Origin: Escherichia phage P896
DNA length: 64,000 bases
Sequence record: OL451225.1
Reading direction: 5' to 3' (one strand)
Under the pieces are notes generated by a model. That model did not search any database. It saw only the letters and a program-made list of their open reading frames with translations, and was not told the DNA's origin. Numbering within the stretch: position 1 is the first letter of the stretch; each line of letters opens with the position of its first letter. A program made the translations under genes and the position numbers. Below are positions 7,390-38,448 of the stretch, one piece after another.

Positions 7390-9072
7390 TTATTCCATAA
7401 CAGTGAATCGACCAACTTTTTTCATCTGGAGATGTTGCCCGTATGCTTCCGGGTCATGGTCTCGGTGACTGATAATAAAGATGTTGGTGTCTTCCAATTT
7501 GTTCAGGATGGTAGCAATTGCTTTAACCCCCTCTACATCAGTAGCTGAATCGAAAACTTCGTCCAGAATCAAGGTGTTAATATTAACACCAGATACTTTC
7601 GCAGCAATATCACGCCATGTAAACAGCAATGCAATATCGATACGAGCTTTTTCACCTTGGCTAAATGATGCATAGCTGAAGTCTTCACGTCCACGAGATT
7701 TAATCGTTTCGTTGAACTCTTCATCTAACGTAAAACTATAATCAGCTTCCATAACTTTAAGGTAAGCGTTTATCTGCTTATTAAAGATAGGAATATATTT
7801 CTTAATAATAGCACCTTTGATACCGGAATCTTTCAACATATCCGTTAGGATACCACGTTGATATTTTTCCATCACAAGGTCGGATTTCTGTTTGACTATT
7901 TTATCAAGCTGGTCTTGAAGCATTTTAATGTCTGCCGCATGGTCAATGAATTCTGACTTAGCTTGCTCGATTAATGCTTTAACCTTTTTAGCTTTTTCGA
8001 CAGTCTGGACTAAGGTTTGTTTCTTAGTTTGAATGTCTTGAGCTATTGTACGTTGTTTTTGTCTTGCAGCAGAATACGCATCAAATTGCTCCTGAACAGC
8101 GTTCTGGCGAGCTTTATGGTTATCAGCTGATACATTACATTCTTCAATCTTTGACTCAATCCTGGCGACAATGGGGTCTCCTGGATGCAACTGACTGGCA
8201 CAAGTCTGACAACAACCACCTTTCTCGTACAGACCAACAACCTTTCGGTAATCGTCTATCTTCGACTTAATCAGGAATGATTCCTGCTTTAACTTCGTGA
8301 GTTCATGCTCAGGGTCTTCTCCCAAGATTATCTCGGTCAGTCTTGTCGTTGCTTCTTCGATAGTCGTTTTGATTCCACGTGCTTCCGTAGCAAGTTCATC
8401 ATACATCGTTTGTAGCCGCAACAGATTATCACCTGATAATTTTCTTTGACGGTCTTCGTTGTCCTGATAGATTTTAATCTGTTGAACAATACCATCATGC
8501 TGCACATCCATCACCTGGATTTGACTATTGACTTCGCGGATAAGAGATTTGTTCAGCTTATCCATATCGGCCAGTACAGAAACCTCTAAAAGGTCTTCGA
8601 CAAGTTTTCTTCTTGCAGGAGTGGATAGGCCCATAAAAGGGGTATATCCAGCTGTGCCGAGTACGACAATCTGTTTGAAGCTTGCATAGGACATTCCGAT
8701 AAGCTGTTCAAATTCCGCTTGGAAGTCTTTACTGCTGGCAGATTCATCAAGACGTTTACCGCCACAAGAGATTTCAAAAACATTGGGTTTTTGCCCGCGT
8801 TTGATATAGTATTCTTTTCCATCATATTCCATCCACAATTCAACGAGCATATCTTTTTTGTTGCTCGAGTTAATCAACTGGCCTTTCTTTACATCACGGA
8901 AAGGCTTACCGAACATAGCAAAGGTAACCGCTTCAAGGAACGTAGATTTACCCGCGCCATTCTTACCGGTGACCAGAGTTTTTTGGACTTTATCCAGTTC
9001 AACAGTAATCGGTTGAGCACCAACCGACATAATATTTTTATAGATAACTTTCTTAAGCTTAAAAGTCTTCAT
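7390..9072 (-). CDS. 46: recombination endonuclease subunit gp46 (SbcC/Rad50-like ATPase)
   Basis: Walker A GKNGAGKST near N-terminus, long coiled-coil middle, C-terminal signature/Walker B; start set at MKTFKL (T4 gp46 begins MKNFKL). Confidence 0.93.
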   Translation of the reverse strand: MKTFKLKKVIYKNIMSVGAQPITVELDKVQKTLVTGKNGAGKSTFLEAVTFAMFGKPFRDVKKGQLINSSNKKDMLVELWMEYDGKEYYIKRGQKPNVFEISCGGKRLDESASSKDFQAEFEQLIGMSYASFKQIVVLGTAGYTPFMGLSTPARRKLVEDLLEVSVLADMDKLNKSLIREVNSQIQVMDVQHDGIVQQIKIYQDNEDRQRKLSGDNLLRLQTMYDELATEARGIKTTIEEATTRLTEIILGEDPEHELTKLKQESFLIKSKIDDYRKVVGLYEKGGCCQTCASQLHPGDPIVARIESKIEECNVSADNHKARQNAVQEQFDAYSAARQKQRTIAQDIQTKKQTLVQTVEKAKKVKALIEQAKSEFIDHAADIKMLQDQLDKIVKQKSDLVMEKYQRGILTDMLKDSGIKGAIIKKYIPIFNKQINAYLKVMEADYSFTLDEEFNETIKSRGREDFSYASFSQGEKARIDIALLFTWRDIAAKVSGVNINTLILDEVFDSATDVEGVKAIATILNKLEDTNIFIISHRDHDPEAYGQHLQMKKVGRFTVME

Positions 9073-9322
9073 CGTAATAAGCATCCTTGATACATGATTC
9101 AGCCATATGGATTAATGCCTCTGGAGTATCATCTTCCATTACATTAAAGCTAAATTCCACGGCCCAATCGGTGACTACATAGACTTTGATAAGTTGACCA
9201 GTTTCCCGGTCAGTGATAGCTTCAAACCAATACTTAATAGTATTCGGTTGATTATCGTCGTCAACCACATCACATTCGCGGATATGCTCAAGTCCCGCTT
9301 CATTAAAATCATAAAGTCTCAT
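9059..9322 (-). CDS. hypothetical acidic protein, 87 aa, between genes 47 and 46
   Basis: ATG start; start overlaps gene 47 stop and end overlaps gene 46 start (coupled). Confidence 0.5.
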   Translation of the reverse strand: MRLYDFNEAGLEHIRECDVVDDDNQPNTIKYWFEAITDRETGQLIKVYVVTDWAVEFSFNVMEDDTPEALIHMAESCIKDAYYDEDF

Positions 9323-10338
9323 TGTTGCACCTCAAGATATAATTTGTTGGCCAATGCTTTGAGAGCTTTTGATTCTTTCTCATTGGCGTCAGGTAATGCA
9401 TCGATATATTCTGCCATCATATCTGTTAAGCGTTTTATGTCTAACTCTTCATCAGAGTCTGACGTATCAACACTGTTATCAACCTTATTGACAACACGCA
9501 ATTCATGCACACGCTTTTCTAATTCAGATTCGAACTTGGTCAGGTCTTTATCGACTTTTTCTACAATAACACGGACTGATAAGTCTTTGAAGTCGTCGTA
9601 GTTAATAGTTTCGTTTGGATAGAAAATCTTCCGATGCCAGGTGGTTTCATTCGGAATAAATTTCATCTCTTCGGTTTCGGTATCAAATTCCCAGAACCCG
9701 CGCGGGTCGTTCTCATCACCTGCTGTTAATGTCCATGGTGTCCCGATGTACTTAACGTTTGCGGCTTCTGAAATGGTATGAAAGTGACCAGACCAAACTT
9801 GCTTGTACTTCTTAAGGAAATCAGGCTCAAGTCCGTGGGATTTCAATCCTTTATAGAAATAAAACCCGGTTAATTCCCAGTGACCGATGCAATATTCAGC
9901 CCCAGAAGTTTTGATGTGTTGATGAATGTCAGTTGCGTTCTCGTCACACATCCATGGAATCATATCAATCTGATAACCGTCAAAATCAACAGTCGTTGGC
10001 TTATCGTAGATTTTAACATGGTCATACTTATTCAGGAGTTCAGTGATAGCATTGGGATGAATCTTATTCTTCAGATTCATGTCATGGTTCCCGACTATCG
10101 TGTGCATAGTAATTCCTGCTTCACGAAGGAGTTCCATAATCTCACGGCTGAATTCCATCGTCTTATGCGTTACGGCCTTACGGACGTCAAAAATATCACC
10201 ATATTGAATCCAGACTTTAATCCCATTCGCTTTGGAATATGCAATCGCCTGTAAAATACCATCGCGTTGAATGTTTTGAGCCCATGGGTCGTCAGCTTTG
10301 ACACCCAAGTGCCAATCACCTAAATTTAAAATTTTCAT
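9319..10338 (-). CDS. 47: recombination endonuclease subunit gp47 (SbcD/Mre11-like phosphoesterase)
   Basis: Trimmed from TTG at 10365 to MKILNLGDWHLGVK (T4 gp47 start); calcineurin-like phosphoesterase motifs GDxxD, GNHD. Confidence 0.93.
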   Translation of the reverse strand: MKILNLGDWHLGVKADDPWAQNIQRDGILQAIAYSKANGIKVWIQYGDIFDVRKAVTHKTMEFSREIMELLREAGITMHTIVGNHDMNLKNKIHPNAITELLNKYDHVKIYDKPTTVDFDGYQIDMIPWMCDENATDIHQHIKTSGAEYCIGHWELTGFYFYKGLKSHGLEPDFLKKYKQVWSGHFHTISEAANVKYIGTPWTLTAGDENDPRGFWEFDTETEEMKFIPNETTWHRKIFYPNETINYDDFKDLSVRVIVEKVDKDLTKFESELEKRVHELRVVNKVDNSVDTSDSDEELDIKRLTDMMAEYIDALPDANEKESKALKALANKLYLEVQQ

Positions 10339-10478
10339 AAGCCAAGCACCGTTATCGCAATGCAAAATAAAATTATTGAAATGAACCCGTCAGGAGTGGA
10401 AAAGAATCCTATCCAACAAGCTCGTGTGAATGTATAGAATGCCATGAATAGCACGACATATCCTAAAAATAATTCCAT
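10335..10478 (-). CDS. small hydrophobic membrane peptide, 47 aa
   Basis: Not in ORF track (below 60 aa). ATG with GAGGAG RBS; stop overlaps gene 47 start (ATGA). Confidence 0.4.
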   Translation of the reverse strand: MELFLGYVVLFMAFYTFTRACWIGFFSTPDGFISIILFCIAITVLGL

Positions 10479-10525
10479 ATGTTCTCCTCAGTTGGTTCAT
10501 TTTATCATCCCGAATATAAAGCAAA

Positions 10526-10547
10526 AAGGAAGCACTAGGCTTCCTTT
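10526..10547 (-). terminator. hairpin GGAAGC-n4-GCUUCC followed by UUUUUGCUUU
   Basis: Inverted repeat plus T-run read on the minus strand. Confidence 0.45.
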
Positions 10548-10708
10548 CCAATTAATACACCATACAGAGGTTCATGAGAAGACCTGAACTTGATAGGCTT
10601 ATAGGTAATAGTACCTTCATTTTCTGCTTTAATACGAGCGGCTTCAAATTGAAGTATCATCTCATTTTTGTCAGATTTAATCTTATCAAAATCCGTCGAA
10701 TTCGTCAT
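10535..10708 (-). CDS. possible small ORF, 57 aa
   Basis: ATG 8 nt after GAGG; below the ORF-track cutoff; weak support. Confidence 0.25.
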   Translation of the reverse strand: MTNSTDFDKIKSDKNEMILQFEAARIKAENEGTITYKPIKFRSSHEPLYGVLIGKEA

Positions 10709-10766
10709 TCATATGACCTCTTAAACTTTTTCGTATTCGTCGTTCATTAGCCTGCTGTCCATGTTA

Positions 10767-10973
10767 TCATCGTTGCCACCATTTCTTAAGTTGATGTGAG
10801 TCTACCCAAACTTTGGATGTCGGCTCAATTTTAACAATACCTTTTGGAACACCATAAGGGCCAAGGAGCTTACATTCGGTTTCGGACTGCTTGATACAGA
10901 TATTACCGTATGAGCGAAGTCTGAAAGCGGCTCCAATAAGAAGCCGTTTAAAAGGTTTATTTACTAATGCCAT
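10767..10973 (-). CDS. hypothetical protein, 68 aa
   Basis: ORF track; ATG start; lies where T4 has alpha-gt. Confidence 0.45.
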   Translation of the reverse strand: MALVNKPFKRLLIGAAFRLRSYGNICIKQSETECKLLGPYGVPKGIVKIEPTSKVWVDSHQLKKWWQR

Positions 10974-11268
10974 TTACGATTTCCCAAATTTGTTTGCGAG
11001 TAGAATCCCACATCAACTTAATCAGGTCTTCCGTAACGGGTTGGCGGTAAATCCCACGCAGTTTAACTAAAGCGTATTTGTATGCTTCAAAATTGTTTTC
11101 CAGCACTGCGCCTTGAGCATGCTTATTCAGTCGTGCAATTTCACGAGCATTCTTTTTCAGAATCTTCGCTGCTTGGCTGGTTGCTTCAAGTGCGTTCGCT
11201 TCTTCGAGACGTTCCTGTGCTTCTTCAATCTGCTTATCGGTCAGTTGAGAAATATCTGGAGCTTGCAT
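10957..11268 (-). CDS. hypothetical protein, 103 aa, helical
   Basis: ORF track. Confidence 0.5.
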   Translation of the reverse strand: MQAPDISQLTDKQIEEAQERLEEANALEATSQAAKILKKNAREIARLNKHAQGAVLENNFEAYKYALVKLRGIYRQPVTEDLIKLMWDSTRKQIWEIVNGISK

Positions 11269-11269
11269 A

Positions 11270-11503
11270 TTAATCCTTGGGAGTTAACTCAATTGTAAAA
11301 TATAGATTAGCATTATCCACATGATAACGGTAATCAACGTTATTATCCGGTGAAGTAAATTCCAGATTCCGGACGTTTAAAGGGTCGATATCAATTGGAA
11401 GACCTTTTATGTCTCGCAGATAAAGTTTAATGAAATATGGGAGCGCCGTAAAGTCTTCCTCGATTTTATCTAAAAAATCGGTAATATCAAATTGATGTTC
11501 CAT
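11270..11503 (-). CDS. hypothetical protein, 77 aa
   Basis: ORF 11270..11521 begins on GTG; trimmed to first ATG. Confidence 0.4.
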
Positions 11504-12044
11504 ATAAAAAATCCAAATCACCCTCTTTATCTTTGGCGCTCTTATCAGACCCTGGCGCTTTAACTAAGGAGGATTCGTACTGTGTCATTTTGTCGTAGAT
11601 GTCCTGGATAAATGTTTCATCAGCCAGAGCCACCATATCGTCATCACGTGAATCGTATACGTTATGGACGAAGTAGCTATATTTCTTTGCCATTTCTTTA
11701 CGTTCTTTTTTGATACGCTGAACGAAAGCATTGAAGCAAGCCATTGTTATGTAAGCATGTGGATTATCGTATTTTGTTTCGTCGAAGTTGTGAAGACCTT
11801 TTATTGCGGCCTCAATTCCGTCCGCTATCATTTCTTGCTTCCAGGATTGGGTATATCCGGAGAAGTTGAAACGTTTGCTAAGACCTTCGGCTATAAGCAT
11901 AATCGCCAGACCAATAACATCGTTCTGGCGAATAATTTTGTTCGGGTCAGTGTTCGCATTCAGCTTCTGTTTCCACTCCGAAATAGCTTTCAAAAGCTCT
12001 TTATTATTTACATAGTTATTCTTGGTTAATTTAATTTCGTTCAT
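11487..12044 (-). CDS. 55: late-transcription sigma factor gp55
   Basis: 185 aa; internal segments ([39 protein letters not shown]) match recalled T4 gp55 almost exactly. Confidence 0.93.
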
Positions 12045-12092
12045 ATCGCCTCACTTAGTATATGAATATTATATCATCCTTTATACAAAGCA

Positions 12093-12359
12093 TTAGCGAA
12101 GTAAACAGTAAGCCTGGAAGACCTTCTCCATAATTGCCTTAAATTCATGGATGTCAATATAAGGGATAACCTCGGCATCACTAATGAATTCCATCAGACG
12201 GTCATGCTCGTTGCGGTATTGTCCTTCATTCAACATGCCGATATGGGACTCCCACGAGCCATACCCTTCTACGTGTGGGAAGAATGTTATTTTCATGAAT
12301 TCATCCACCCAAAACGTTCCCAGGTCCTGGATGGATATCATTGTATGATTGATGTGCAT
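12093..12359 (-). CDS. hypothetical protein, 88 aa
   Basis: ORF track; ATG start. Confidence 0.5.
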   Translation of the reverse strand: MHINHTMISIQDLGTFWVDEFMKITFFPHVEGYGSWESHIGMLNEGQYRNEHDRLMEFISDAEVIPYIDIHEFKAIMEKVFQAYCLLR

Positions 12360-12625
12360 CAGTACACCAATTGAGCAGCTTCTAAAACATCATCAAGCTT
12401 ATCAAACTGGTCAATATAATCAATCCCACCAACTTCATCTTTAGCATACAACCAATATTGGTGGAATTCATATTCAATAATAAAGTGGTCACCTTCAATC
12501 TGGAGAACCCCATCACCATTAAATTGAACTGCATAACCCGTAAAGCGGACATCATTCAGGAGTTCTTCTTTCATAGTAATCATTTCCAAGTTTTTATCGT
12601 AATTAGAGAGTTTTATTTTAATCAT
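12359..12625 (-). CDS. hypothetical protein, 88 aa
   Basis: ORF track; stop/start overlap with the downstream gene. Confidence 0.5.
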   Translation of the reverse strand: MIKIKLSNYDKNLEMITMKEELLNDVRFTGYAVQFNGDGVLQIEGDHFIIEYEFHQYWLYAKDEVGGIDYIDQFDKLDDVLEAAQLVY

Positions 12626-12881
12626 TTAAGTAGTCCAGGAATTCGTCTAATGTCATGCCTTCCGCCCAAGCTTCCCAAGCATCGATTTTAGTGTACTTGG
12701 TTTTAGTACACATAGGATAGATTCTGAATTCATATCCCATTGCAATGAAATAATTTAAAGTCCTTTGTAAATAGTATCCTTGGCTAATTTTATGAGCTCG
12801 GCGAATTCCATTAGCATACGTATGTTTGTAAGATACTATCACCGCAACACCTTCAGGTAATTCAATAGCAGGACACATCAT
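12618..12881 (-). CDS. hypothetical protein, 87 aa
   Basis: ORF track. Confidence 0.5.
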   Translation of the reverse strand: MMCPAIELPEGVAVIVSYKHTYANGIRRAHKISQGYYLQRTLNYFIAMGYEFRIYPMCTKTKYTKIDAWEAWAEGMTLDEFLDYLND

Positions 12882-13204
12882 TTCGCACCCTTAATAATTT
12901 TCAGGTCAACAAAACCTTTCTTACGCTGGGAATTCATGCGCTTGATGGCTTTGTCAGAAACTTCTTTGTTTTCACGTGGAAGCGGCAGACCAAACGCTAC
13001 TACATCAAATTCATTCAGGATATACTGGACAAGGCTTTCACGAATACGCGCTTTACCCATTGTCTGACCTTCTGCAATAATTAGCTTCTGTACATCGCCT
13101 TCCCACTGGTCCAGAATTTCAGGGGTAACGAAACCAGATTTCATCAGAGTGTTGACTTTAGCAAACGCGAAATTAGCGATGGTGTTAGTGATAGATGCAG
13201 TCAT
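12878..13204 (-). CDS. hypothetical protein, 108 aa
   Basis: ORF track; ATG start. Confidence 0.5.
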   Translation of the reverse strand: MTASITNTIANFAFAKVNTLMKSGFVTPEILDQWEGDVQKLIIAEGQTMGKARIRESLVQYILNEFDVVAFGLPLPRENKEVSDKAIKRMNSQRKKGFVDLKIIKGAK

Positions 13205-13239
13205 GATATATTCCTCAGTCTCATTAAATTAAAATTTTA

Positions 13240-13276
13240 TTATCCTGGGGTCATTATACCATGACCCCGTTGGTTT
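13240..13276 (-). promoter_or_regulatory. stem-loop GGGGTCAT/ATGACCCC with a TATAAT hexamer in the loop (promoter-cassette-like; no clear -35)
   Basis: Inverted repeat and hexamer read on the minus strand; function uncertain. Confidence 0.3.
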
Positions 13277-13474
13277 TTATTGCGCTTTAGCCGCTTTCCA
13301 GCCTTCATACATCATTGCGGCTGATATTAATATCGCTCCTGAACAACTTGAATACTTGTGATTCCAAAACCAGTTTAGAAAAACTTCGTCATCGATACCT
13401 TGAGCTATCATATTTTCAAAGAACTGACGACGAGCTTCAGCAATTCGCTGTGATAATTTAGATTCAGGGTTCAT
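13277..13474 (-). CDS. hypothetical protein, 65 aa
   Basis: ORF track; ATG start. Confidence 0.45.
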   Translation of the reverse strand: MNPESKLSQRIAEARRQFFENMIAQGIDDEVFLNWFWNHKYSSCSGAILISAAMMYEGWKAAKAQ

Positions 13475-13606
13475 TTAAATTTTCCAGTTACCGTTTTCAT
13501 CAATAAATTCAATCCAGTCATTTACTGACCACTTGGTTGTATCGCCTTTTGGAGCAGAATTTAAAGCGTATAATCCTTGTTTAAAAAGCATTCGTTTGAT
13601 ATTCAT
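13475..13606 (-). CDS. possible small protein, 43 aa
   Basis: ORF 13475..13699 trimmed to ATG at 13606 with GAGGAAAAC RBS to remove overlap with the upstream gene. Confidence 0.3.
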   Translation of the reverse strand: MNIKRMLFKQGLYALNSAPKGDTTKWSVNDWIEFIDENGNWKI

Positions 13607-13613
13607 GTTTTCC

Positions 13614-13907
13614 TCAGCTGTAACGATAGCACTCGTTTGATTTACGTTTTGCAACACGGTGAGAAGTATTATAATCAAAATCATCCTCAACGTATACATC
13701 TTTTTTCAACTGACGAACTTCTTTACGCAGTTGACGATTCATCTCATTCTTGACTTCTGAATCAACGCCACGCATACGCTTCCATTTGTCTGAACGGAAG
13801 ATATTTTCTTCAACTTGTTCCTGACTTACACCATCAGGCGCTCGGCGACGCCCTGAATAATAAAAATCTTTTACAGACAATTCTTTGCGACGAATAGTTT
13901 TACCCAT
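13614..13907 (-). CDS. hypothetical basic protein, 97 aa
   Basis: ORF track; ATG start. Confidence 0.5.
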   Translation of the reverse strand: MGKTIRRKELSVKDFYYSGRRRAPDGVSQEQVEENIFRSDKWKRMRGVDSEVKNEMNRQLRKEVRQLKKDVYVEDDFDYNTSHRVAKRKSNECYRYS

Positions 13908-13909
13908 AG

Positions 13910-14164
13910 TTACCTCAGCAGTTTGTATCCAATAAGCTTTTTAATGTACTGGATATCTTTGACATCCAAATCCAACTTAAGGTCTTTCAGACGGTCGACC
14001 AGGGTCAAAAAGGTTACATGTTTCCAATTCTTCACTGGGCAACAATAAGTCTTAGGACCATTTGCAATTTCAATATTTTTATCTGTGACGGTGATAAAAA
14101 TCAAACGTTCATCATCAAGATTAAGGGTGGCGACATTTTTCATTGAATGTAATTTCAGGCTCAT
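13910..14164 (-). CDS. hypothetical protein, 84 aa
   Basis: ORF track; ATG start. Confidence 0.5.
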   Translation of the reverse strand: MSLKLHSMKNVATLNLDDERLIFITVTDKNIEIANGPKTYCCPVKNWKHVTFLTLVDRLKDLKLDLDVKDIQYIKKLIGYKLLR

Positions 14165-14343: not shown

Positions 14344-14350
14344 TTTGTTT

Positions 14351-14410
14351 TCCTCATCAGTAGTTGATGGGATAATGATACACCGTTCAAAGGGGCTTGT
14401 ACACCCCTTT
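14351..14410 (-). promoter_or_regulatory. early promoter cassette (-35 GTGTACA inside a GGGG/CCCC hairpin, -10 TATCAT, conserved leader ATTATCCCATCAACTACTGA)
   Basis: Read on the minus strand; member of the GATGGGATA class of repeats. Confidence 0.5.
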
Positions 14411-18124: not shown

Positions 18125-18310
18125 TTATTTTTCAAATGTGCTATAGAACGAACGATGCAACCGTTTAAATTGACGAATCATCTTTTTGGTAGGACGAGTA
18201 TACAATCCTACACAGGTGGCCATAAACTGGTCAGTAGGACTTCCTTTGATAAGAAGTTTCCAGACCTTGTCACCGTTTAACTTTTCGGTATAGACTAATT
18301 TAGTTTTCAT
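18125..18310 (-). CDS. hypothetical protein, 61 aa
   Basis: ORF track. Confidence 0.4.
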   Translation of the reverse strand: MKTKLVYTEKLNGDKVWKLLIKGSPTDQFMATCVGLYTRPTKKMIRQFKRLHRSFYSTFEK

Positions 18311-18579
18311 TAAACAATCCTAAAACAAGGATAATGGCAGTCAACGTTACCATTATCAATTATCATATACTCAGTGATACAGGTCCATGACCCTTCAATT
18401 TCTATGGTATCAAAAAGGTATTCATCTGTTTCAACAACGTCCCAAACATTACATTCAACGTCAGGGTCAAAACGTTGTCTTAACGCATGGATAACATCAC
18501 CATTTTTAAATCCTGCGTCTTGAAGCTCTTTCATAAAACCTGATTGAGCAGCATGAATATTAACAATTTCTAAAAACAT
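18310..18579 (-). CDS. hypothetical protein, 89 aa
   Basis: ORF track; ATG start. Confidence 0.5.
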   Translation of the reverse strand: MFLEIVNIHAAQSGFMKELQDAGFKNGDVIHALRQRFDPDVECNVWDVVETDEYLFDTIEIEGSWTCITEYMIIDNGNVDCHYPCFRIV

Positions 18580-18752
18580 TAAAAGACCTCATCAGAAAAG
18601 CGGAGTTGAGCTTCAAGCCAATGAATGTAGTCAGCTGCAGCAAAAATTAAAGCAGATTCTTCATCAGGTAACTTACGGGAATCCGACAATTCGTAAAGTG
18701 AATGTTCAATCAGACGGCCTTTATGACGGCCAACTTCAATTTTGGTACTCAT
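18579..18752 (-). CDS. possible small protein, 57 aa
   Basis: Below ORF-track cutoff; ATG start; stop overlaps the downstream start (TAATG). Confidence 0.35.
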   Translation of the reverse strand: MSTKIEVGRHKGRLIEHSLYELSDSRKLPDEESALIFAAADYIHWLEAQLRFSDEVF

Positions 18753-18869
18753 ATCCAAACTCCATATCGATTAAATCATTGTTTGAAGGTTCATTATAAT
18801 CTATTTCGGAATCGTTGTAAACCGGTTCCTCTGGCTCGACGGTTTCCCATCGAGCGGTATACCATGGTT

Positions 18870-19190
18870 TTATAGCGTAATCCATTCTCGGATAGTTTGG
18901 GTTACGACACGTTCTTGGAGCTTAACCAGTTCAACAGTCGGGACCATATGGTCCCAGTCGGTATGATAAGAGCCGGTACGAGTTTCGTTTACAGCCACAT
19001 GCACATTATGTTTTTTGCTGAAATAAATTGCCTGGCGATATTGGTATTTGCCGGTTTGTGTCCATTCGCCTAATTCAACCGGAACCAGGTAGTCCGAAAA
19101 TTCAAACTCGTATGATTCAGTAAACGCATCATGGTCTTCAATGATTTCGCTTAAAACAGCATCAACATCTAATTCATTTTCAATAGTCAT
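18870..19190 (-). CDS. hypothetical protein, 106 aa
   Basis: ORF track; ATG start. Confidence 0.5.
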   Translation of the reverse strand: MTIENELDVDAVLSEIIEDHDAFTESYEFEFSDYLVPVELGEWTQTGKYQYRQAIYFSKKHNVHVAVNETRTGSYHTDWDHMVPTVELVKLQERVVTQTIREWITL

Positions 19191-19495
19191 TGGTCACTCC
19201 AATAGCTTGATACTTCAAAATCAGGCTCGCCGTTTTCCCAGTACCAAGGACCAACCGGATGCCAATCGCCATGCTTATCTTCTTCATATTCTTCAGATTC
19301 AAGCCCAACGTATTGCCATTGGACTTCATAAGCAGTGCCGCCGATTACAACAGTGTTCTCACCATACGGGTGAGCCACAGCAAAGTCAATACCTTCTGCT
19401 TTAGCCAACCAAACCATATATTCGTATAGTTTATATTCCAGGTCATCTTCGGTACCATCACCTAGAAAAATGGTTTGTTCGTTTAATTCAATCAT
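19187..19495 (-). CDS. hypothetical acidic protein, 102 aa
   Basis: ORF track; ATG start. Confidence 0.5.
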   Translation of the reverse strand: MIELNEQTIFLGDGTEDDLEYKLYEYMVWLAKAEGIDFAVAHPYGENTVVIGGTAYEVQWQYVGLESEEYEEDKHGDWHPVGPWYWENGEPDFEVSSYWSDQ

Positions 19496-19680
19496 AATTC
19501 CACCATAAATTCAAATAGCTGGTCACGTACACAAGTATCAGTCCAACCCCATTCGTTGGCTTCTTCTTTTAACCAATCCGGGAGATTTGCCAATACGGTT
19601 TCTTTACTAGGCGCGGGAGTATCAAACTCTCTCGTCAACTCTCTTGCGCAGGTTTTATAGGCCATATCAAATTCAGTCAT
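19492..19680 (-). CDS. hypothetical protein, 62 aa
   Basis: ORF track; ATG start. Confidence 0.45.
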   Translation of the reverse strand: MTEFDMAYKTCARELTREFDTPAPSKETVLANLPDWLKEEANEWGWTDTCVRDQLFEFMVEL

Positions 19681-26368: not shown

Positions 26369-26929
26369 TTAAGAGTTCATAGTTGGGATAACAGAGTTCA
26401 GATAAGAGACTAAAACTTTTAGCTCGTCTTTAGTAAATACAACTTCACTTTCACCGTCATGTCTTTGGACAATGGACAACAAGTCACGGCCGTTATGTTG
26501 ATGCACAGTCAGTTCAGTATTATAATCTAATTCCTCTTCATCGCCTTCAAACGTTTCGCTAGAGCGAATCAGTGCGTCTTGACCAGGGACTTTCCATTCA
26601 ACTTCTGGCTTGCATTCTTCCTGGAACAGTTTGAAAATACAATCAAAGAATTTATCAGAATCGCTGATGCTCAGACATTCAATACCATTTTCTAAATTAA
26701 ACCCGTTTTCGTTTTTATAGATATAGGCATACATATCATCATTGATATCAACAGGAGCACTAGCACGACCATTAAGATAATCGTGTCTATCCAAAACCAT
26801 TAAATCATAAAGCGGTTTAATATCAGCGATAGTCAGTACGATTTTATCGTCTTCTTGACAAAGCTCAATTGCGTTATTAACTACTTCAGCGGTCAGTTCG
26901 CCAAACAATTCAGTTGTTTCAATAATCAT
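26369..26929 (-). CDS. hypothetical acidic protein, 186 aa
   Basis: ORF track; ATG start. Confidence 0.55.
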   Translation of the reverse strand: MIIETTELFGELTAEVVNNAIELCQEDDKIVLTIADIKPLYDLMVLDRHDYLNGRASAPVDINDDMYAYIYKNENGFNLENGIECLSISDSDKFFDCIFKLFQEECKPEVEWKVPGQDALIRSSETFEGDEEELDYNTELTVHQHNGRDLLSIVQRHDGESEVVFTKDELKVLVSYLNSVIPTMNS

Positions 26930-29834: not shown

Positions 29835-30020
29835 TTATTCTGTAATACTTTCCAGATAATTTTCTAAATCGTCTGAAGCCTTATTAAGGGCTTCTAGCGC
29901 TTTATAATAGTCTTCACGGGAGTAATATTCTGTATGAAGTTCTTCGTCGTATTCGCTTTTAGCATCAACAACAGTTTCAATCATATCCAGAATTTTATTT
30001 TTCTGTTCTTTAGTAATCAT
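29835..30020 (-). CDS. hypothetical acidic protein, 61 aa
   Basis: ORF track. Confidence 0.4.
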   Translation of the reverse strand: MITKEQKNKILDMIETVVDAKSEYDEELHTEYYSREDYYKALEALNKASDDLENYLESITE

Positions 30021-30028
30021 AATATACC

Positions 30029-30214
30029 TTAAAGAGTATTCACATAAGCAATTAATTCGTTTTCTTTCTCATCAAACCGATTAGCAAATTCTTCCAGATG
30101 TTCGGCATCTATCGGGCCGTATTCATCATAAAAGGCGTTTGCTTCTGTATGCTCATCCAAAAGCTCATGGATAAGCTCAAATAATCTACTTTTCTGACTA
30201 ATGCTTAAACTCAT
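30029..30214 (-). CDS. hypothetical acidic protein, 61 aa
   Basis: ORF track. Confidence 0.4.
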   Translation of the reverse strand: MSLSISQKSRLFELIHELLDEHTEANAFYDEYGPIDAEHLEEFANRFDEKENELIAYVNTL

Positions 30215-31433: not shown

Positions 31434-31435
31434 TT

Positions 31436-31978
31436 TTAATCCACCGTTTTTAATAGGCCTCGTGATTTTAAGTAGTTAGCTTTTTCTAGGACCTGTGAAG
31501 CATACTTATTACCAGCTTTCACATTCCACCCTGCGTTATATGATGATAGTGTTTTCCTTATATCCCCCTTATGAATATTTAACCAATATGAAAGCTCAAT
31601 ATAAGCCCAGCGTGCACTGTTCTCTCTCTTGCTTATCATCTTGATTATTTCTTTATCTGTCATTGTCCACCCAACCTGTTTCACGCGTTCGCGCACGGTT
31701 GGAAGATAATTTTGGAATATACCATATGCATGATGCTTATCTTTATTTAATCCAGTATTAACCCCAGCAGAACTTTCCTGCCAGGTTAAACCAGCCATGA
31801 TATATCCCAAACCATTATGTTGGTGCGGATTTTCTTTGTACTTGCCATTTTTCTGGAACTGTTCTCCAAACGCATAAGCATATTGGAGGTTCTCCATTTG
31901 TTCATTACTGAAAGTAGGCTCTACGCTATGGGCAGACATACTAACTGTCAATAGTAAGGTGGCGATTACTTTTTTCAT
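31436..31978 (-). CDS. exported SLT-like lytic transglycosylase, 180 aa
   Basis: Signal peptide then WQESSAG...AYGIFQ (catalytic Glu-Ser plus GLMQ-like motif); at the position of T4 vs.1, next to regB. Confidence 0.5.
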   Translation of the reverse strand: MKKVIATLLLTVSMSAHSVEPTFSNEQMENLQYAYAFGEQFQKNGKYKENPHQHNGLGYIMAGLTWQESSAGVNTGLNKDKHHAYGIFQNYLPTVRERVKQVGWTMTDKEIIKMISKRENSARWAYIELSYWLNIHKGDIRKTLSSYNAGWNVKAGNKYASQVLEKANYLKSRGLLKTVD

Positions 31979-31988
31979 GAATTCCCCA

Positions 31989-32447
31989 TTAGATATAAAT
32001 CACTTTTGTGCTAATTTTTCCTTCCAGACGATTAGAGTTAACAAACGCCATACGACAACACATGGTCGGAGACTTCCCAGGAAGAGCTGGGTTAACTGTC
32101 ATTCCTAACCATAGGTTCTTGTCTGTGATTTCCAGACGAAGTGGACGATAGTTCACATTCGGGTCAATTTGTGCTTCAACTTCCGGGAGTGGTTTCATCT
32201 CCAGGAATTCAACGATTTCTTTTACATGTGGTGTGATTTTTCCAAACAAATCAAAAACATATTGTTCATCAATTTCACGTTGGATTGCACGGTCCAACAG
32301 GTGTGGACTGTACTTAATGAAGAATGCCTCAAGGCCTGCTTCTTTACAAGCCTTGTTGATAGCATTATTAATTTTGAGGAACTCCGTTTCAAAAATGCGA
32401 CGAAGTTTATTGCGGCGAATGTAAACACTTGAATCGATAGTAGTCAT
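31989..32447 (-). CDS. regB: RegB site-specific endoribonuclease (by synteny, length and recalled sequence)
   Basis: ORF 31989..32504 trimmed to ATG at 32447 (AAAGGAGATAATC RBS) gives 152 aa, about the recalled T4 RegB length; lies between the SLT-like gene and the vs-like genes. Confidence 0.5.
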   Translation of the reverse strand: MTTIDSSVYIRRNKLRRIFETEFLKINNAINKACKEAGLEAFFIKYSPHLLDRAIQREIDEQYVFDLFGKITPHVKEIVEFLEMKPLPEVEAQIDPNVNYRPLRLEITDKNLWLGMTVNPALPGKSPTMCCRMAFVNSNRLEGKISTKVIYI

Positions 32448-32503
32448 GATTATCTCCTTTTGTTTGATGGGATAATCATAACTCATTTCAATCTGCTTGT
32501 ACA
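32448..32503 (-). promoter_or_regulatory. early promoter cassette, GATGGGATA class
   Basis: Conserved GTTTGATGGGATAATCATA block plus GTACA -35-like element upstream of regB. Confidence 0.45.
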
Positions 32504-33083
<580 letters not shown>

Positions 33084-33087
<4 letters not shown>

Positions 33088-33317
33088 TTCACTTCCTCGC
33101 CAGTTGCGATATCATATTCTACTAAACGAAGGCCTTCAGTCCAACCTTGCACGGAGATATAGGTAGACGGGTAAATCATTTCTTTACCATTCCACCGACC
33201 GCCATCCCAGACTTCCAGAAAGTCTTGTTCACCTGGTCCATTAAACCATTCAACAAATCTTTTCAGAGCTTCATCAGAGCCTTCAATTGTCAATTTAGAC
33301 ATATTTTTTCCAATCAC
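33084..33317 (-). CDS. hypothetical protein, 77 aa
   Basis: ORF track. Confidence 0.45.
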
Positions 33318-33594
33318 TAATTAATCGCACATCCTGGTCATAGGTCAGGAGGCTACGAGTGATAATACCCTTACACGGTCCAGAAATAAATTCCAGAGTA
33401 AAGTAAGGAACCAACTTCATCAAGCGAATACTCGGAGCAGTGCAACGAAATCTGGACCCAATAAAAGGCCCAGACAAAAACACATACTCAAAGAAATTTG
33501 CTTTATTAAAGATTTCAAAATTCTTTACGAAATCTTCTGACCTAACCTTTGGAATAAAATAGATTTGGTCAAAAAGCTCTTCATGGGTCATCAT
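33295..33594 (-). CDS. hypothetical protein, 99 aa
   Basis: ORF track. Confidence 0.45.
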   Translation of the reverse strand: MMTHEELFDQIYFIPKVRSEDFVKNFEIFNKANFFEYVFLSGPFIGSRFRCTAPSIRLMKLVPYFTLEFISGPCKGIITRSLLTYDQDVRLISDWKKYV

Positions 33595-34118
33595 TGCATT
33601 CCTATCACAAAGAACAGTGGCAAAGGCTTATCACCTTGACACATAAATTTATTCATCATTACCTGATAAGCTTCATAGAACTTATCCATTGCAGGGAGGC
33701 GAATAGGTTCTTCAATAATGATTAAAAGACGCGTAAAACGCAATCCACGGTACTTATGGAAATTATCTTCATCAAGGAAACTGCGTACAGTATCATAGAC
33801 AACGAATCCAGGTCGTTCAACATTAAGATGTGGTTGGGCCTTAGAAACCTGTTTTATTACATTACAAATTTCTCGTGAGCGATGTGAAGAACTCGACATA
33901 ACAATCACATCATTACCTTTAGAAACCCAATCAGCTGCGAACTGTGCAATGGCACTTGTTTTACCTGTTTGTCTTCCACCGTCAAGTCTCAGAGTGCCAA
34001 ACTCTTGCATTCTTGAAGCGGGTTCATACCAGGTGTATTGGTCTGAATCTAATCGTTCAATGGCGCGTTCAGCGAAGGCGTGCATTAAGGTTAGATAAAT
34101 GGGAGTTAAAAATTTCAT
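33591..34118 (-). CDS. small P-loop protein, 175 aa (Walker A GGRQTGKTS)
   Basis: ORF track; Walker-A-like GxxxxGKT motif near residue 47. Confidence 0.5.
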   Translation of the reverse strand: MKFLTPIYLTLMHAFAERAIERLDSDQYTWYEPASRMQEFGTLRLDGGRQTGKTSAIAQFAADWVSKGNDVIVMSSSSHRSREICNVIKQVSKAQPHLNVERPGFVVYDTVRSFLDEDNFHKYRGLRFTRLLIIIEEPIRLPAMDKFYEAYQVMMNKFMCQGDKPLPLFFVIGMQ

Positions 34119-34278
34119 AATTGTCTCTTAGTTGTGGGGCCATTCCTTGGCACATAATTCGTCCATGTATCCGTATGTAAACCCTTTACCGCACTTGGGC
34201 TCGACCTTATTACAGGTAGGGAAAGGCCCATCACTCAGAGGACACGAAGTTCATGAGGAGAGGGTCGGCTTGCCTTTA

Positions 34279-34578
34279 TTAGAAAGAACCAGAACCTTTA
34301 ATTGTGTTCTGGCGACCTTTATTTTCCAATTCAGAATGGTCAATTTCATATGCTTGTGCCACGCCAAAAGCCTTTTTAACTTTAGCTAAAGAACCTTTAG
34401 ATGTAACAATATTAAAAGTATTACCTTTGGTAAAATCAACCAAATCCACTTGTACACCTTGTTTACCGAGGCTTGCGACAATAGCATCAACATATTGTTG
34501 GTCTAAATTGCCCTGGACTCCAATTTGGAATGCTTTAGGAGCTTTGGCTTCAGTAATAAATTCTTGATAAGTTTTCAT
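34279..34578 (-). CDS. internal-protein-like head protein with N-terminal capsid-targeting-like sequence MKTYQEFITE
   Basis: 99 aa starting MKTYQEFITEA; matches the recalled T4 internal protein targeting sequence (MKTYQEFIAE). Confidence 0.6.
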   Translation of the reverse strand: MKTYQEFITEAKAPKAFQIGVQGNLDQQYVDAIVASLGKQGVQVDLVDFTKGNTFNIVTSKGSLAKVKKAFGVAQAYEIDHSELENKGRQNTIKGSGSF

Positions 34579-34632
34579 TTTATTCTCTCTAAGTTGATGG
34601 GATAATTATGCACTATCCCATCAAAAAGTAAA
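34579..34632 (-). promoter_or_regulatory. early promoter cassette (-35 GTTTAC, 17-bp spacer, -10 CATAAT bracketed by GATGGGATA/TATCCCATC)
   Basis: Read on the minus strand upstream of the internal-protein-like gene. Confidence 0.55.
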
Positions 34633-34635
34633 CAG

Positions 34636-34899
34636 TTATGCTTTACCGCCAGAAACAATACCAAAGGTCTCAAAGTCCCATTCAATATCGTCAACATCAA
34701 CTTTCTTACCAGCAACCACGAATGCGATTTCGCGACGTTTTGCATAGGTGACAATTTCTTTACCATCGCCGCCAAAGAAAGAATAACCATTGCGCTTCAT
34801 GGTGCCAAAGTCTTCAGCATCACCAGCGAATGCGCGGACTTTAAAGGAACCAGCAGGAGCTTTGGCAGATTCAGTAATAAATTCTTGATAAGTTTTCAT
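34636..34899 (-). CDS. internal-protein-like head protein (MKTYQEFITE start)
   Basis: ORF 34636..34938 trimmed to the internal ATG that yields MKTYQEFITESAKAP; 87 aa. Confidence 0.55.
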   Translation of the reverse strand: MKTYQEFITESAKAPAGSFKVRAFAGDAEDFGTMKRNGYSFFGGDGKEIVTYAKRREIAFVVAGKKVDVDDIEWDFETFGIVSGGKA

Positions 34900-34947
34900 T
34901 TTATATTCCATTGTTTGGTTGATAAAATCATTATACAACCTTTTTAG

Positions 34948-35364
34948 TTAAGCGTACACAGCTTTCCCATAGTATTTGTACCAGGTAGGCTTTTGAGAAA
35001 TTTTCTCATTCAGTCTGGCTTGACTGATTTCAATTGACCAGATTGATGGTTGATAATCATTCTTCCATTCATCAGGAATATCATTTAAATCTTGGGTAGA
35101 AATATCTTTTATGTTAAACCCTCGCTTTAAACATTCCGCAATAAGTTCTTGATGACGGTTTTTAAGGAACAAAAGCTTATCATAAAAGAAGGTGACATGA
35201 CCAGTCCCTAAAAGAAAAGATGATGGGATTTTAAAGTCAGAAACCTTTTTACCATTTTGCACATGCTTACGAACAGCACCAAACACGCGAGGAAGTTCAC
35301 GATATTCGGCCATAAGATGTTGGTCAGCAAGTTCAGATACCAGGGTCAAATTAATGCGAGTCAT
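34948..35364 (-). CDS. denV: endonuclease V (pyrimidine dimer DNA glycosylase) DenV
   Basis: Trimmed to [31 protein letters not shown]..., near-identical to recalled T4 DenV; 138 aa as in T4. Confidence 0.92.
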
Positions 35365-35423
35365 GTTTGTTCTCCTATGTTTGTAGGAGAACATTATATC
35401 ACACGTATCGTGGAAGTAAACTG
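35365..35423 (-). promoter_or_regulatory. promoter-like element with -10 TATAAT followed by hairpin GTTCTCCTA/TAGGAGAAC that contains the denV RBS
   Basis: Read on the minus strand. Confidence 0.4.
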
Positions 35424-35726
35424 TTATTTACCTTTAATTGCTTTAGCTGCTTCGATAGCCGCTTGCTGAAGGTCATCCATAGACATGCCGAACTTAGAAG
35501 CAAAGTTATCAATTTTCTTTTCGACAGAATTCAAAGGCTTGGCCTGTTTACCTTCGTTAGCGCCAGGGAGAGCTAGAATACGCTCTTTGTCAATATAAAG
35601 GCTTACAAGTTTCTTACGGTCTTTATCTGGTAAATCATGAAATGAATGGGCCTTTTTATTTACAGCGGCTTCTAATTTACCTGCACTTACGCGCGCTTCG
35701 GTGATAAATTCTTTATACGTTTTCAT
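35424..35726 (-). CDS. internal-protein-like head protein ([10 protein letters not shown] start)
   Basis: 100 aa; N-terminal capsid-targeting-like sequence; between denV and e, where T4 has ipII/ipIII. Confidence 0.6.
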
Positions 35727-35734
35727 ATTTTACC

Positions 35735-36226
35735 TTATTTGTATGCGCTAAAAGTTCCGGTACGGAACGTTTCTATAACTCGTTTGGCTCGGTTCGGAGT
35801 CTGGACTTTATACCATCTCGAGTCGGCCAGTTCTTTGGCGGCGGCTTCCCACGATTTGGCCTTCAACAATCGCATACCCTTAGGAAAACCAGCAACACCA
35901 GCAACACCCATCTGGAATACCATATTAATGAGTGCACAACGACGAACTTCATCTAGCACATCATAAACAGGTTTTAAGACAGGGTGTCTCAAGATTCCGG
36001 CTTTAGCTTTTTCGACCGAACGGTTAAACAATGTTTCAGCTTCGTGCTGGGTTATGCGACCATTACAGACGCGACCCATGAGCTTGTCGAGCTCGGCACG
36101 AGCAACATCTTTTGATGGGTTCTTAGTTATCAGTTGCCCGATACCAATGGTCCAAAAGCCTTCGGTATCTTTATACAAATCCAACTTACAACCTTCATCT
36201 ATGCGTAACATTTCGAATATATTCAT
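35735..36226 (-). CDS. e: lysozyme (endolysin), gene e
   Basis: 163 aa; [12 protein letters not shown]...KDTEG.WTIGIG...[12 protein letters not shown]...RWY...TPNRAKRVI matches recalled T4 lysozyme. Confidence 0.95.
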
Positions 36227-36252
36227 AATACCCCCTTATATAGGGGTATTTA

Positions 36253-36705
36253 TTATCCGAAAATTTGAGTCATTACCTTGTACATCGATTTACCCATCAC
36301 GTATTGCCATTGGCTCGGTTTAATCAGAGCAAATGCATCAAACTCTGGGACTGTACTGCCATCCGGAAAGGTATGATAGGCAGAGCATTTACTGTGTCTG
36401 AATTGTTCATGCTCGACAGGAACCGTATACAAAAACAGGTGAAGGTTTTTGTTATCTGAATAACGGAACTCACCGAGGTCTTTTAAGAATGCCGGGTCGT
36501 ATTGGGTAAACCCAGTTTCTTCTTCGGTTTCACGAATAGCCGCTTCAATTGGGGATTCATCAGCTTCAACATGACCCTTAGGGATGTCCCATTTGTGTGC
36601 AGGCATACCTGGTTTACGAGAACCGGTCACACGACCCATGAATAACTCTTTATCTTCGGTCATGAAAATAATGCCAGCAGATAATTCCTTCACTTTCTTA
36701 CTCAT
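36253..36705 (-). CDS. nudE: Nudix hydrolase NudE
   Basis: ORF 36253..36780 begins on GTG; trimmed to ATG at 36705 gives 150 aa, close to the recalled T4 NudE length; Nudix box GHVEADESPIEAAIRETEEETG. Confidence 0.75.
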   Translation of the reverse strand: MSKKVKELSAGIIFMTEDKELFMGRVTGSRKPGMPAHKWDIPKGHVEADESPIEAAIRETEEETGFTQYDPAFLKDLGEFRYSDNKNLHLFLYTVPVEHEQFRHSKCSAYHTFPDGSTVPEFDAFALIKPSQWQYVMGKSMYKVMTQIFG

Positions 36706-36934
36706 CGTCACGTTCCCAAGATTTTTTAAAGATTTCGGCCATAATAATTTCAACGCGTGTTTCTGTTGATGGGCTTTCACTATCAGTTATTTGCACCATA
36801 TAGTCAGAAATCGGGCAGAACATATCCAAGTCAGTTTCTAAATCATCTTTGATTTTCTCTTCTGATGTACCTGTATCATAGGAATACAGATAAGAATCAC
36901 ATGACTCGGATTTAATATAAATTGCAATACTCAT
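36698..36934 (-). CDS. hypothetical acidic protein, 78 aa
   Basis: ORF track; ATG with GAGGAA RBS. Confidence 0.45.
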   Translation of the reverse strand: MSIAIYIKSESCDSYLYSYDTGTSEEKIKDDLETDLDMFCPISDYMVQITDSESPSTETRVEIIMAEIFKKSWERDDE

Positions 36935-37515
36935 TTACGGCATTCCTCAATAAAAGAGTTTAATGTATTTTTCTTGGCGATATCATCATATACCTTTTTA
37001 ACTTTAGAAATACGAAAAGGTACTTCAATAGCCATAGTCCATAAAAATGATGCAATAAGTCCAACAGCAGCAGAAGAAATGCACGCGCCCATTACAGCCA
37101 CAGGTGCTTCATTTTTACCCGTCAAGAAAAACCACAGGATTGGTAAAAATAAGATTCCAGCCCAGGCATAAAACCTGGAACAAATTAACTTATCAAATTC
37201 ATCTTTCCAGGTACGAAATCCATATTTCTTGCTATAAGAAATTAATGGGTCGGGTGTCTGTTCTTTGAGTGGTTCCGGTTGATACCCATTAACAATATAT
37301 CCCATTTTATATTCCTTAATTAAAAGCTCTTTCACATGACGATTGCATCGCGACCAATCAACATTTTCCACCTTGATTCCTTCATCACCATCGTCAAGGT
37401 TCGCCCAATATTTTTTGGTAATCATAAATTCATCTCTTGATACAATTATACCTGCATTTTCTGCCCGACGGATGAAGTTTACATCAACACCCATACAACC
37501 AGGTTCATACAGCAT
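36931..37515 (-). CDS. membrane protein, 194 aa, C-terminal FIEECRK tail
   Basis: ORF track; two hydrophobic helices near the C-terminus; tail motif shared with three genes at 41765..43011. Confidence 0.55.
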   Translation of the reverse strand: MLYEPGCMGVDVNFIRRAENAGIIVSRDEFMITKKYWANLDDGDEGIKVENVDWSRCNRHVKELLIKEYKMGYIVNGYQPEPLKEQTPDPLISYSKKYGFRTWKDEFDKLICSRFYAWAGILFLPILWFFLTGKNEAPVAVMGACISSAAVGLIASFLWTMAIEVPFRISKVKKVYDDIAKKNTLNSFIEECRK

Positions 37516-38201
37516 TACCAGCCCTCCATAGGAAATTCCAGATATACTTGAGCATTAACGCGGATTTCATTGGTGATTTTATTAACGCGGTCAGTTTTAC
37601 GAGATACGCGACCAAACCAGCGCCAACCATTACCAACCGTTTTTGTTCCAGTATGCCAGGTCTGCCAGTTGAATTCACACAACGTGCGGTCAGGAGCTTC
37701 TTGAACTAAAAGTTCACCCGCCTTGATTTTTTCCAGAACTTCCTGATGCCACTGGCGATAGATAAGTTCGCCATCAGGAATCTGACTGAATTCTGAAGTT
37801 CCCAGAGCAAAATGAGTAGGGCAAACAGAAGCGTTAACCAGACCCAGGATGTGTTCAGAATGGTAACGAGGGTTATCATAATCAGGTTGTCCTGCTGTAA
37901 TAAAATGTTGTCCTGCTGGAATATCTGGACGTGGTACATCATCATGGTGATACCCAGGGATAGCAGGATACCAACCAGGCATCAACATATGGACGCGAGA
38001 GTCAAATACAACCTGGTCAGTGTTCCAATCATCCGGCAGGTTCATGATGAAGCTGCGAGTAATAGGACCGCCATTATCAAAAGCGAAGGCTAACGAGCTG
38101 TTGAAGAACATAGTTTCGTTTTTGATTTTATCGTTAGAAATTTTACCAGCAAATTGACCAACTTCACGCATTTGACTATTAAAAGTTTTTGAGCTATTCA
38201 T
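37515..38201 (-). CDS. hypothetical protein, 228 aa
   Basis: ORF 37515..38339 trimmed to ATG at 38201 (GAGGAAAAT RBS); His/Asp-rich segment HHDDVPRPD. Confidence 0.55.
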   Translation of the reverse strand: MNSSKTFNSQMREVGQFAGKISNDKIKNETMFFNSSLAFAFDNGGPITRSFIMNLPDDWNTDQVVFDSRVHMLMPGWYPAIPGYHHDDVPRPDIPAGQHFITAGQPDYDNPRYHSEHILGLVNASVCPTHFALGTSEFSQIPDGELIYRQWHQEVLEKIKAGELLVQEAPDRTLCEFNWQTWHTGTKTVGNGWRWFGRVSRKTDRVNKITNEIRVNAQVYLEFPMEGW

Positions 38202-38211
38202 GATATTTTCC

Positions 38212-38448
38212 TCAGTATTCTTCATCATATTCAAAGTCTTCATCAAACTCGGGTTCCAGAGAAATTTCTTCTTCCGGGTGGAATTCACAAGGGAAGTATT
38301 CCACTTCACCACAATCGGCGTCATAGGACTGGAAATCAATTTGGATTACGGTTTCGGATACAACAATAACTTCAGCAACCAAGTCACCTGCAATTTCCAT
38401 TCCAACTTTAACATCTTTAGCTTTGATAGTATTCATTTTATTCTCCAA
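38212..38448 (-). CDS. hypothetical strongly acidic protein, 78 aa
   Basis: ORF track; C-terminal EEEISLEPEFDEDFEYDEEY. Confidence 0.5.
   Translation of the reverse strand: MENKMNTIKAKDVKVGMEIAGDLVAEVIVVSETVIQIDFQSYDADCGEVEYFPCEFHPEEEISLEPEFDEDFEYDEEY

Follow-up and report, generated by a model that had tools for sequence, protein, structure and literature searches.

Four small, very acidic proteins of a T4-like Escherichia phage belong to catalogued families of unknown function

In T4-like phages, small genes with no known function number well over a hundred, and some of them have proved to encode inhibitors of bacterial immunity. Among described phage proteins that are both small and very acidic, the closest to those considered here are the DNA mimics T7 Ocr and T4 Arn. 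DNA mimics are defined by a DNA-like arrangement of surface charge, and their folds are so divergent that prediction from sequence is hard (PMC3902945). A further described system is the acidic C-terminal tail of T7 gp2.5, which mediates protein contacts, those with replication proteins included, and competes with single-stranded DNA (ssDNA) for the ssDNA-binding site (PMC10359462). Here we have analysed 64,000 nt of DNA from Escherichia phage P896 (OL451225.1; this whole stretch is called the window), in which four genes encode small, very acidic proteins: gp46.2, gp49.3, and two proteins that we call gp128 and gp131 after their homologues in Shigella phage SP18 (Table 1). A sequence-only reading of the window had taken these proteins for possible DNA mimics, on the ground that small acidic phage proteins are "frequently" of that kind; this overstates the case, since DNA mimics make up 11 of the 268 phage anti-defence proteins in a 2025 catalogue. 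We find that the four proteins belong to catalogued families of unknown function, that the genes are real and the families conserved, and that acidity is a trait of each family, with the individual acidic positions conserved only in part. As to what the proteins do, we lean, at about even confidence, towards four unrelated protein-binding accessory proteins and not a coherent class of DNA mimics.

The comparison with Ocr and Arn brings out likenesses of composition and setting. All are small proteins of very low isoelectric point (pI), and the density of negative charge in the two mimics is comparable to, or lower than, that in the four candidates: net charge per residue lies between −0.17 and −0.27 for the candidates, the corresponding values of Ocr and Arn being −0.24 and −0.10. 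Ocr and Arn are phage accessory proteins whose genes are not expressed late, as is probably the case here, and a stretch of acidic residues closes the Ocr sequence, too (...EEYEEDEE). The candidates differ from both mimics in having no sequence or profile similarity to them, and the predicted structures of gp46.2 and gp49.3 match neither of the mimic structures.

The four genes and their families

The window shows about 97% identity to SP18 and to Escherichia phages related to it, which belong to the Tevenvirinae (Gaprivervirus/Dhakavirus group). All four open reading frames (ORFs) are genuine minus-strand genes, annotated as coding sequences (CDSs) in close relatives such as SP18. They lie where the sequence-only reading had placed them and have the translations that it gave; its bounds hold for gp46.2, gp49.3 and gp128, while the start of gp131 is probably an ATG 12 nt further inside. 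Each gene is tightly packed into an operon, its start and stop overlapping the neighbours, on the strand that carries the DNA-metabolism genes. When the families were aligned with hhalign, they proved mutually unrelated (probability <2%). The names given to all four in annotations are "hypothetical protein", with the sole exception of "antitoxin" for the gp128 orthologue in phage EAWsc9. That label has no support from Pfam, NCBIfam, PHROGs or PDB, and the names used in EAWsc9 are unreliable, since neighbouring ORFs of about 70 residues are called "malate synthase", "ovule protein" and "transposase". Nothing on these genes was found in the literature searched on 46.2, 49.3, Y03C and T4 anti-defence screens, and an accessory-gene preprint by Silas et al. 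makes no mention of the four loci.

The gene for gp46.2 sits between those for gp47 (Mre11/SbcD-like) and gp46 (Rad50/SbcC-like), the two subunits of a DNA-end-processing nuclease, and overlaps both. Its product matches Pfam PF25721 (T4_Y03C) over profile positions 1–85 of 85, with an E-value of 1e-44 and a score of 151 bits (gathering cut-off 27), and also matches phrog_2192. It is 44% identical to T4 46.2, which is far less acidic (net charge −9 vs −16) and lacks the DEDF tip; by sequence and by its identical genomic position, it is a clear orthologue of T4 gene 46.2. T4 and a Klebsiella Marfavirus have retained the gene order 47/46.2/46, and of the homologues that a tblastn search found in 743 phage records, each lies under or next to the two nuclease subunits.

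gp49.3 is encoded in a cluster of small acidic genes that runs from gene 49 to nrdC, and its start and stop also overlap the neighbours. It matches phrog_4203 with an E-value of 5e-47, and all of its homologues carry the Pfam domain PF26871 in precomputed annotation. Since it is 77% identical to T4 49.3, listed as "11.9 kDa protein in pin-nrdC intergenic region", and occupies the same genomic position, sequence identifies it as a clear orthologue of T4 gene 49.3, of a family found in 282 phage records. A relationship to the CdiI immunity proteins was also considered for gp49.3, as single-sequence searches gave hits of 17 bits (cut-off 60) and an E-value of 0.5 to 5hkq_I; it was rejected, the family profile finding nothing in PDB at E ≤ 10 and CdiI being absent from the list of structural matches. 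The gene is one of four small acidic genes that follow one another directly and bear no functional annotation (Table 1). The 46.2 and 49.3 families are both without known function, and membership of them therefore explains no mechanism for either protein.

Structure prediction with AlphaFold2 gave confident models for these two proteins. The gp46.2 model (predicted local distance difference test, pLDDT, 90.4; predicted template-modelling score, pTM, 0.77) has a four-stranded meander between a short helix and a C-terminal helix, with confidence dropping over the final residues; by a linear charge map, 14 of its 22 acidic residues lie in loops. The gp49.3 model (pLDDT 93.4, pTM 0.81) is made up of one strand, a long and a short helix, and an antiparallel sheet with multiple strands. 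Foldseek searches against 350,000 PDB chains returned nothing significant for either model, the best E-values being 0.10 for gp46.2 and 0.09 for gp49.3, each with a template-modelling score (TM) below 0.4. Among the predicted viral structures of BFVD, the gp49.3 model matches its own uncharacterised family only. Thus both proteins are predicted to be compact, folded α/β domains that resemble no solved structure, and gp49.3 may represent a small α/β fold that has not been described before.

gp128 is wedged between e.2 and nudE, overlapping both, and matches phrog_2900 with an E-value of 2e-37. It is present in 309 phage records, which include T4-like phages of Serratia, Salmonella and Enterobacter as well as the jumbo phages CBB and GAP32. 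Searches of Pfam, NCBIfam and PDB with its sequence were without match.

gp131 is rare, being present in only 9 phage records and, by a word-indexed protein search, in 2 clusters, while an exhaustive scan of 1.8 billion proteins yielded 10 cluster representatives. It matches phrog_22890 (E-value 2e-35) over residues 5–67 of the 78-residue reading. The likelier start is the ATG at 38436, which gives 74 residues, is preceded by GGAG at the right spacing, and agrees both with the 225-nt CDS of SP18 and with where the PHROG profile starts; the codon from which the 78-residue reading begins, the TTG at 38448, falls within this ribosome-binding site. The gene is missing from phage EAWsc9 (about 94% identical here), where the same two genes flank the gap, and it is also found in the Vequintavirinae and Stephanstirmvirinae, so that three phage groups carry it in all. 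Such patchy presence, together with the spread across phage groups, is the hallmark of an accessory gene that is mobile. The pair of flanking genes is conserved with or without gp131 between them. A single record names both flanks, one as "nucleotidyltransferase" and the other as "phytanoyl-CoA dioxygenase" (Table 1).

In the protein itself an acidic tail comes after a conserved core of about 50 residues (A-x-D-V-x-V-G-M ... D-x-D-C-G-[ED]-x-[ED]-Y), and 13 of the 20 net negative charges of the protein sit in its last third. That gp131 ends in an acidic run had been remarked upon before, and the tail quoted at that time is indeed present (Table 1). The tail is restricted to the copies in T4-like phages, in which its length varies (...PEFDEEY vs ...PEFDEDFEYDEEY), and it is absent from the homologues of the Vequintavirinae and Stephanstirmvirinae and from those of metagenomes. 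An Intein/Hint-like N-terminus was considered for gp131 and rejected, as the lone hit (E-value 0.76 over 28 residues) is not significant. Likewise, there is only a negligible probability that one or more of the four ORFs are not genes. The doubt arises chiefly for gp131, since a naive longest-ORF caller prefers the antisense ORF that overlaps it; however, strong PHROG or Pfam matches exist for each of the candidates, all of which are conserved at the protein level across genera, and a Shine–Dalgarno sequence precedes the gp131 ATG. The antisense ORF is an artefact, because a coding strand rich in Glu codons gives a complement rich in Phe.

Acidity in the window and the question of DNA mimicry

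Calculation of the isoelectric points bore out the description of the four proteins as very acidic, with pI values of 3.3 to 3.65, contents of Asp plus Glu (D+E) of 24–31% and net charges of −13 to −21. The pI values are from our own calculation, the value of 4.05 returned by Biopython being the floor of its algorithm. When the 88 coding-strand genes of ≤130 aa in the window were ranked by net charge per residue, the candidates occupied ranks 1, 2, 3 and 5. The distribution of acidity is continuous: a net charge of −8 or lower is seen in 18 of the 88 genes, and at least 20% D+E in 15 of them. One of the acidic proteins is gp57A, the tail-fibre assembly chaperone (Table 1). Since so many small genes of the window share the property, gp57A included, acidity is not specific to mimics; it is a frequent trait of small T4-like proteins, one of which, gp57A, is a known non-mimic. 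In size and acidity gp57A is similar to the candidates, and it comes from the same genome. It differs from them in having no sequence relationship to any of them, no aromatic residues and a composition rich in Ala, Gln and Leu, whereas the candidates are rich in aromatic residues (18 in gp49.3), and gp46.2 and gp49.3 are predicted to contain β-sheets.

All sampled homologues, in each of the four families, carry a net negative charge. Of the acidic positions in the query, those that are acidic in ≥90% of these homologues make up 64% in gp46.2, 50% in gp49.3, 26% in gp131 and 10% in gp128, so that few acidic positions are conserved in the homologue alignment of the last.

Similarity to a described mimic was looked for at several levels. 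With hhalign, the probability of a relationship to Ocr and Arn was <1% for all four families, and phmmer and hmmsearch runs against PDB sequences were empty for all four, family profiles included. The top 50 Foldseek matches of the gp46.2 and gp49.3 models hold no mimic of the Ocr, ArdA, Arn, Gam, Ugi or p56 class, gp128 and gp131 having been compared by sequence only. As the folds of mimics are divergent, these negative results lower the probability of mimicry and do not exclude it. The positive case for mimicry is confined to composition, a standard that many neighbouring genes also reach. In practical terms the lesson is a negative one, namely that acidity alone fails to single out the DNA mimics in such genomes.

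Favoured explanation and competing readings

According to the explanation that we favour, the four would be accessory proteins, non-structural and unrelated to one another, whose genes this T4-like phage transcribes together with the early/middle DNA-metabolism genes, and each would most likely be a small stoichiometric binder of a host or phage protein partner, which it would engage via its acidic surface. For gp46.2, the partner would be the gp47/gp46 nuclease, or a host factor that competes with this nuclease: since gp46.2 is co-translated with the two subunits, modulation of the one or the other is its most plausible role. The lineage-specific tail of gp131, which is gp2.5-like, could dock onto a basic nucleic-acid-binding groove.

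In many T4-like lineages the slot between genes 47 and 46 holds a small ORF, usually overlapping its neighbours and acidic, and the families of the occupants differ. They include T4_Y03C (46.2), DUF5487 (46.1), an 89-aa DUF3110 protein of cyanophage S-RIM8 (net −8) and, in an Acinetobacter phage, a 196-aa metallophosphatase; the occupants in Vibrio phage KVP40 (75-aa ORF, net −8) and Klebsiella phage Matisse of the genus Slopekvirus (95-aa ORF, net −10) are unassigned to any family. The slot may be a hot spot for insertions, or else small acidic proteins of unrelated families play analogous parts there with the nuclease. It is a possibility that gp46.2 and the slot proteins of the Vibrio, Klebsiella and cyanobacterial T4-like phages form an unrecognised class of regulators for the phage Mre11/Rad50 nuclease. 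It is position that offers the more promising lead: in several distant lineages, a small acidic gene is coupled in translation to the Mre11-like and Rad50-like subunits between which it lies.

Several points weigh against the protein-binding explanation. The label "protein binder" is a very general one to fall back on, and no partner came to light for any of the proteins. A charge density at or above the level of Ocr, combined with a family-wide net charge, would also be expected of a nucleic-acid mimic. The early/middle timing is read from strand and context, and the slot between genes 47 and 46 is filled elsewhere by unrelated small genes, so that it may be a plain insertion hot spot with no link to the nuclease.

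That one or more of the four are mimics of double-stranded DNA, as the sequence-only reading had proposed, is in our estimate rather unlikely. Their small size, low pI (about 3.3–3.7), high D+E content and charge per residue, comparable to that of Ocr and above that of Arn, are all in keeping with it, as are the conservation of net charge within each family, a genomic context that points to non-late expression and the patchy distribution of gp131, which is typical of counter-defence genes; the divergence of known mimic folds also leaves room for it in spite of the missing similarity (PMC3902945). Against it stand the lack of homology between these proteins and Ocr, Arn or any chain in PDB, the failure of the gp46.2 and gp49.3 models to match the structure of a known mimic, the many acidic positions that are unconserved, the commonness of acidity in the window, where a chaperone shares it, and the low base rate in the 2025 catalogue. 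A related proposal is that at least one of them is a nucleic-acid mimic with a new fold, whose target would be a host protein of defence or repair that binds DNA or ssDNA and is blocked by it; taken jointly with the regulator class suggested for the gp46.2 slot, this too we hold to be unlikely. The best candidates for such a mimic may be gp49.3, with its net charge of −21, confident model and lack of a PDB neighbour, and gp131, with its acidic-aromatic tail. Were any of the four to mimic nucleic acid, the short list of such proteins would gain a new fold, and the protein could provide a tool for blocking a restriction, repair or defence enzyme.

The tails invite a different comparison. gp46.2 (...DAYYDEDF) and gp131 (...FEYDEEY) end in an acidic tail with a C-terminal aromatic residue, a feature seen in neither gp49.3 nor gp128, and the run of Asp and Glu closed by an aromatic residue in gp46.2 (DEDF) and gp131 (DEEY) is like that of T7 gp2.5 (DGDF) and gp4 (DTDF). 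Such tails (...EFDEDFEYDEEY in gp131) might then act like the C-terminal tails of proteins that bind single-stranded DNA (SSBs) and compete with ssDNA or SSB, a role to which we assign quite a small probability. It seems similarly doubtful that they plug basic ssDNA-binding or SSB-tail pockets, for example those of gp46/47, of gp32 partners or of host SSB clients. The style of the tails does resemble those of gp2.5 (...EEADEDGDF) and gp4 (...SNDTDF), the former of which competes with ssDNA and makes contacts with replication proteins; gp46.2 is encoded between the two nuclease subunits, and its tail has a lower pLDDT than its body, which fits a flexible tip. But the likeness rests on a short, low-complexity motif, and the tails are not conserved: T4 46.2 ends in ...CEVFDI and the Marfavirus copy in ...YDENV, and the distant homologues of gp131 are tail-less. 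Unlike the SSB-type proteins, moreover, gp46.2 and gp131 are not SSBs themselves, and their tails are lineage-specific. No oligonucleotide/oligosaccharide-binding (OB) fold is predicted for either: gp46.2 is an α/β meander without one, going by its model, whose SSB hits have E-values no better than 0.4, and the gp131 profile finds no SSB. Because the tails are not conserved across the families, we keep the idea as a hypothesis.

Very unlikely, in our judgement, is a role of some of the four as assembly chaperones or minor virion components in place of host-directed factors. It has a precedent within the window in the acidic chaperone gp57A, and gp128 lies within the operon of the lysozyme gene e, with gp131 just upstream of that operon; nevertheless, the genomic neighbours are DNA-metabolism and accessory genes. 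The late-promoter motif TATAAATA occurs near none of the four, the nearest one upstream of gp128 and gp131 being 8 kb off, and a reading as late structural genes was rejected on this ground. A scan for sigma-70-like promoters around gp128 and gp131 gave no more hits than chance. Internal head proteins are ruled out as well, as the capsid-targeting sequence MKTYQEFI(A/T)E stands at the N-terminus of none of the four. gp131 is missing from near-identical phages, and so it is not needed for assembly. Taken together, strand and context fit a non-late, non-structural expression of all four genes.

Other acidic genes and neighbouring features

The positions of the four genes, their neighbours and the other features mentioned are collected in Table 1, with Ocr and Arn for comparison.

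Table 1. Coordinates, charge and annotation of the four genes and of other features discussed (positions refer to the window)
Feature	Coordinates	Strand	Length (aa)	D+E (%)	Net charge	Remarks
gp46.2	9059–9322	−	87	25	−16	gp46.2 homologue; SP18 gp46.2
gp49.3	19187–19495	−	102	24	−21	gp49.3 homologue; SP18 gp49.3
gp128	36698–36934	−	78	26	−13	e.2/nudE interval; SP18gp128
gp131	38212–38436 (38212–38448 in the sequence-only reading)	−	74	31	−20	rare accessory gene; SP18gp131
gp131 C-terminal tail	38215–38274	−				acidic-aromatic; EEEISLEPEFDEDFEYDEEY
gp46	7390–9072/9084					Rad50/SbcC-like
gp47	9319–10338					Mre11/SbcD-like
nudE	36253–36705					overlaps gp128
e.2	36931–37515					overlaps gp128
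gp131 flank	37515–38201	−	228			no Pfam hit; "phytanoyl-CoA dioxygenase" in one record
gp131 flank	38503–39462	−	319			DUF7277 + DUF7275; "nucleotidyltransferase" in the same record
ORF antisense to gp131	38200–38493	+	97			artefact
Run of four acidic genes	18310–19680	−				contains gp49.3
Acidic run, gene	18310–18579	−			−12	
Acidic run, gp49.2	18870–19190	−			−12	
Acidic run, gene	19492–19680	−			−8	
gp57A	50333–50563		76	21	−10	tail-fibre assembly chaperone
DUF7438 paralogue	29835–30020	−	61	28	−10	tandem pair
DUF7438 paralogue	30029–30214	−	61	25	−11	tandem pair
PF24449/PF24448 protein	26369–26929	−	186		−26	T4 y05I-like family
Internal-head-protein gene	34279–34578	−				carries MKTYQEFITE
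Internal-head-protein gene	34636–34899	−				carries MKTYQEFITE
T7 Ocr			117	29	−28	from its genome record
T4 Arn			92	17	−9	from its genome record

Two internal-head-protein genes that adjoin denV carry the capsid-targeting sequence in the form MKTYQEFITE; this is where T4-like phages have their hypervariable internal-protein locus. The window also contains a tandem pair of DUF7438 paralogues that equal the four candidates in acidity, to which the earlier reading had not drawn attention, and a longer acidic protein that matches PF24449 and PF24448, the two domains of the T4 y05I-like "putative transcription factor" family.

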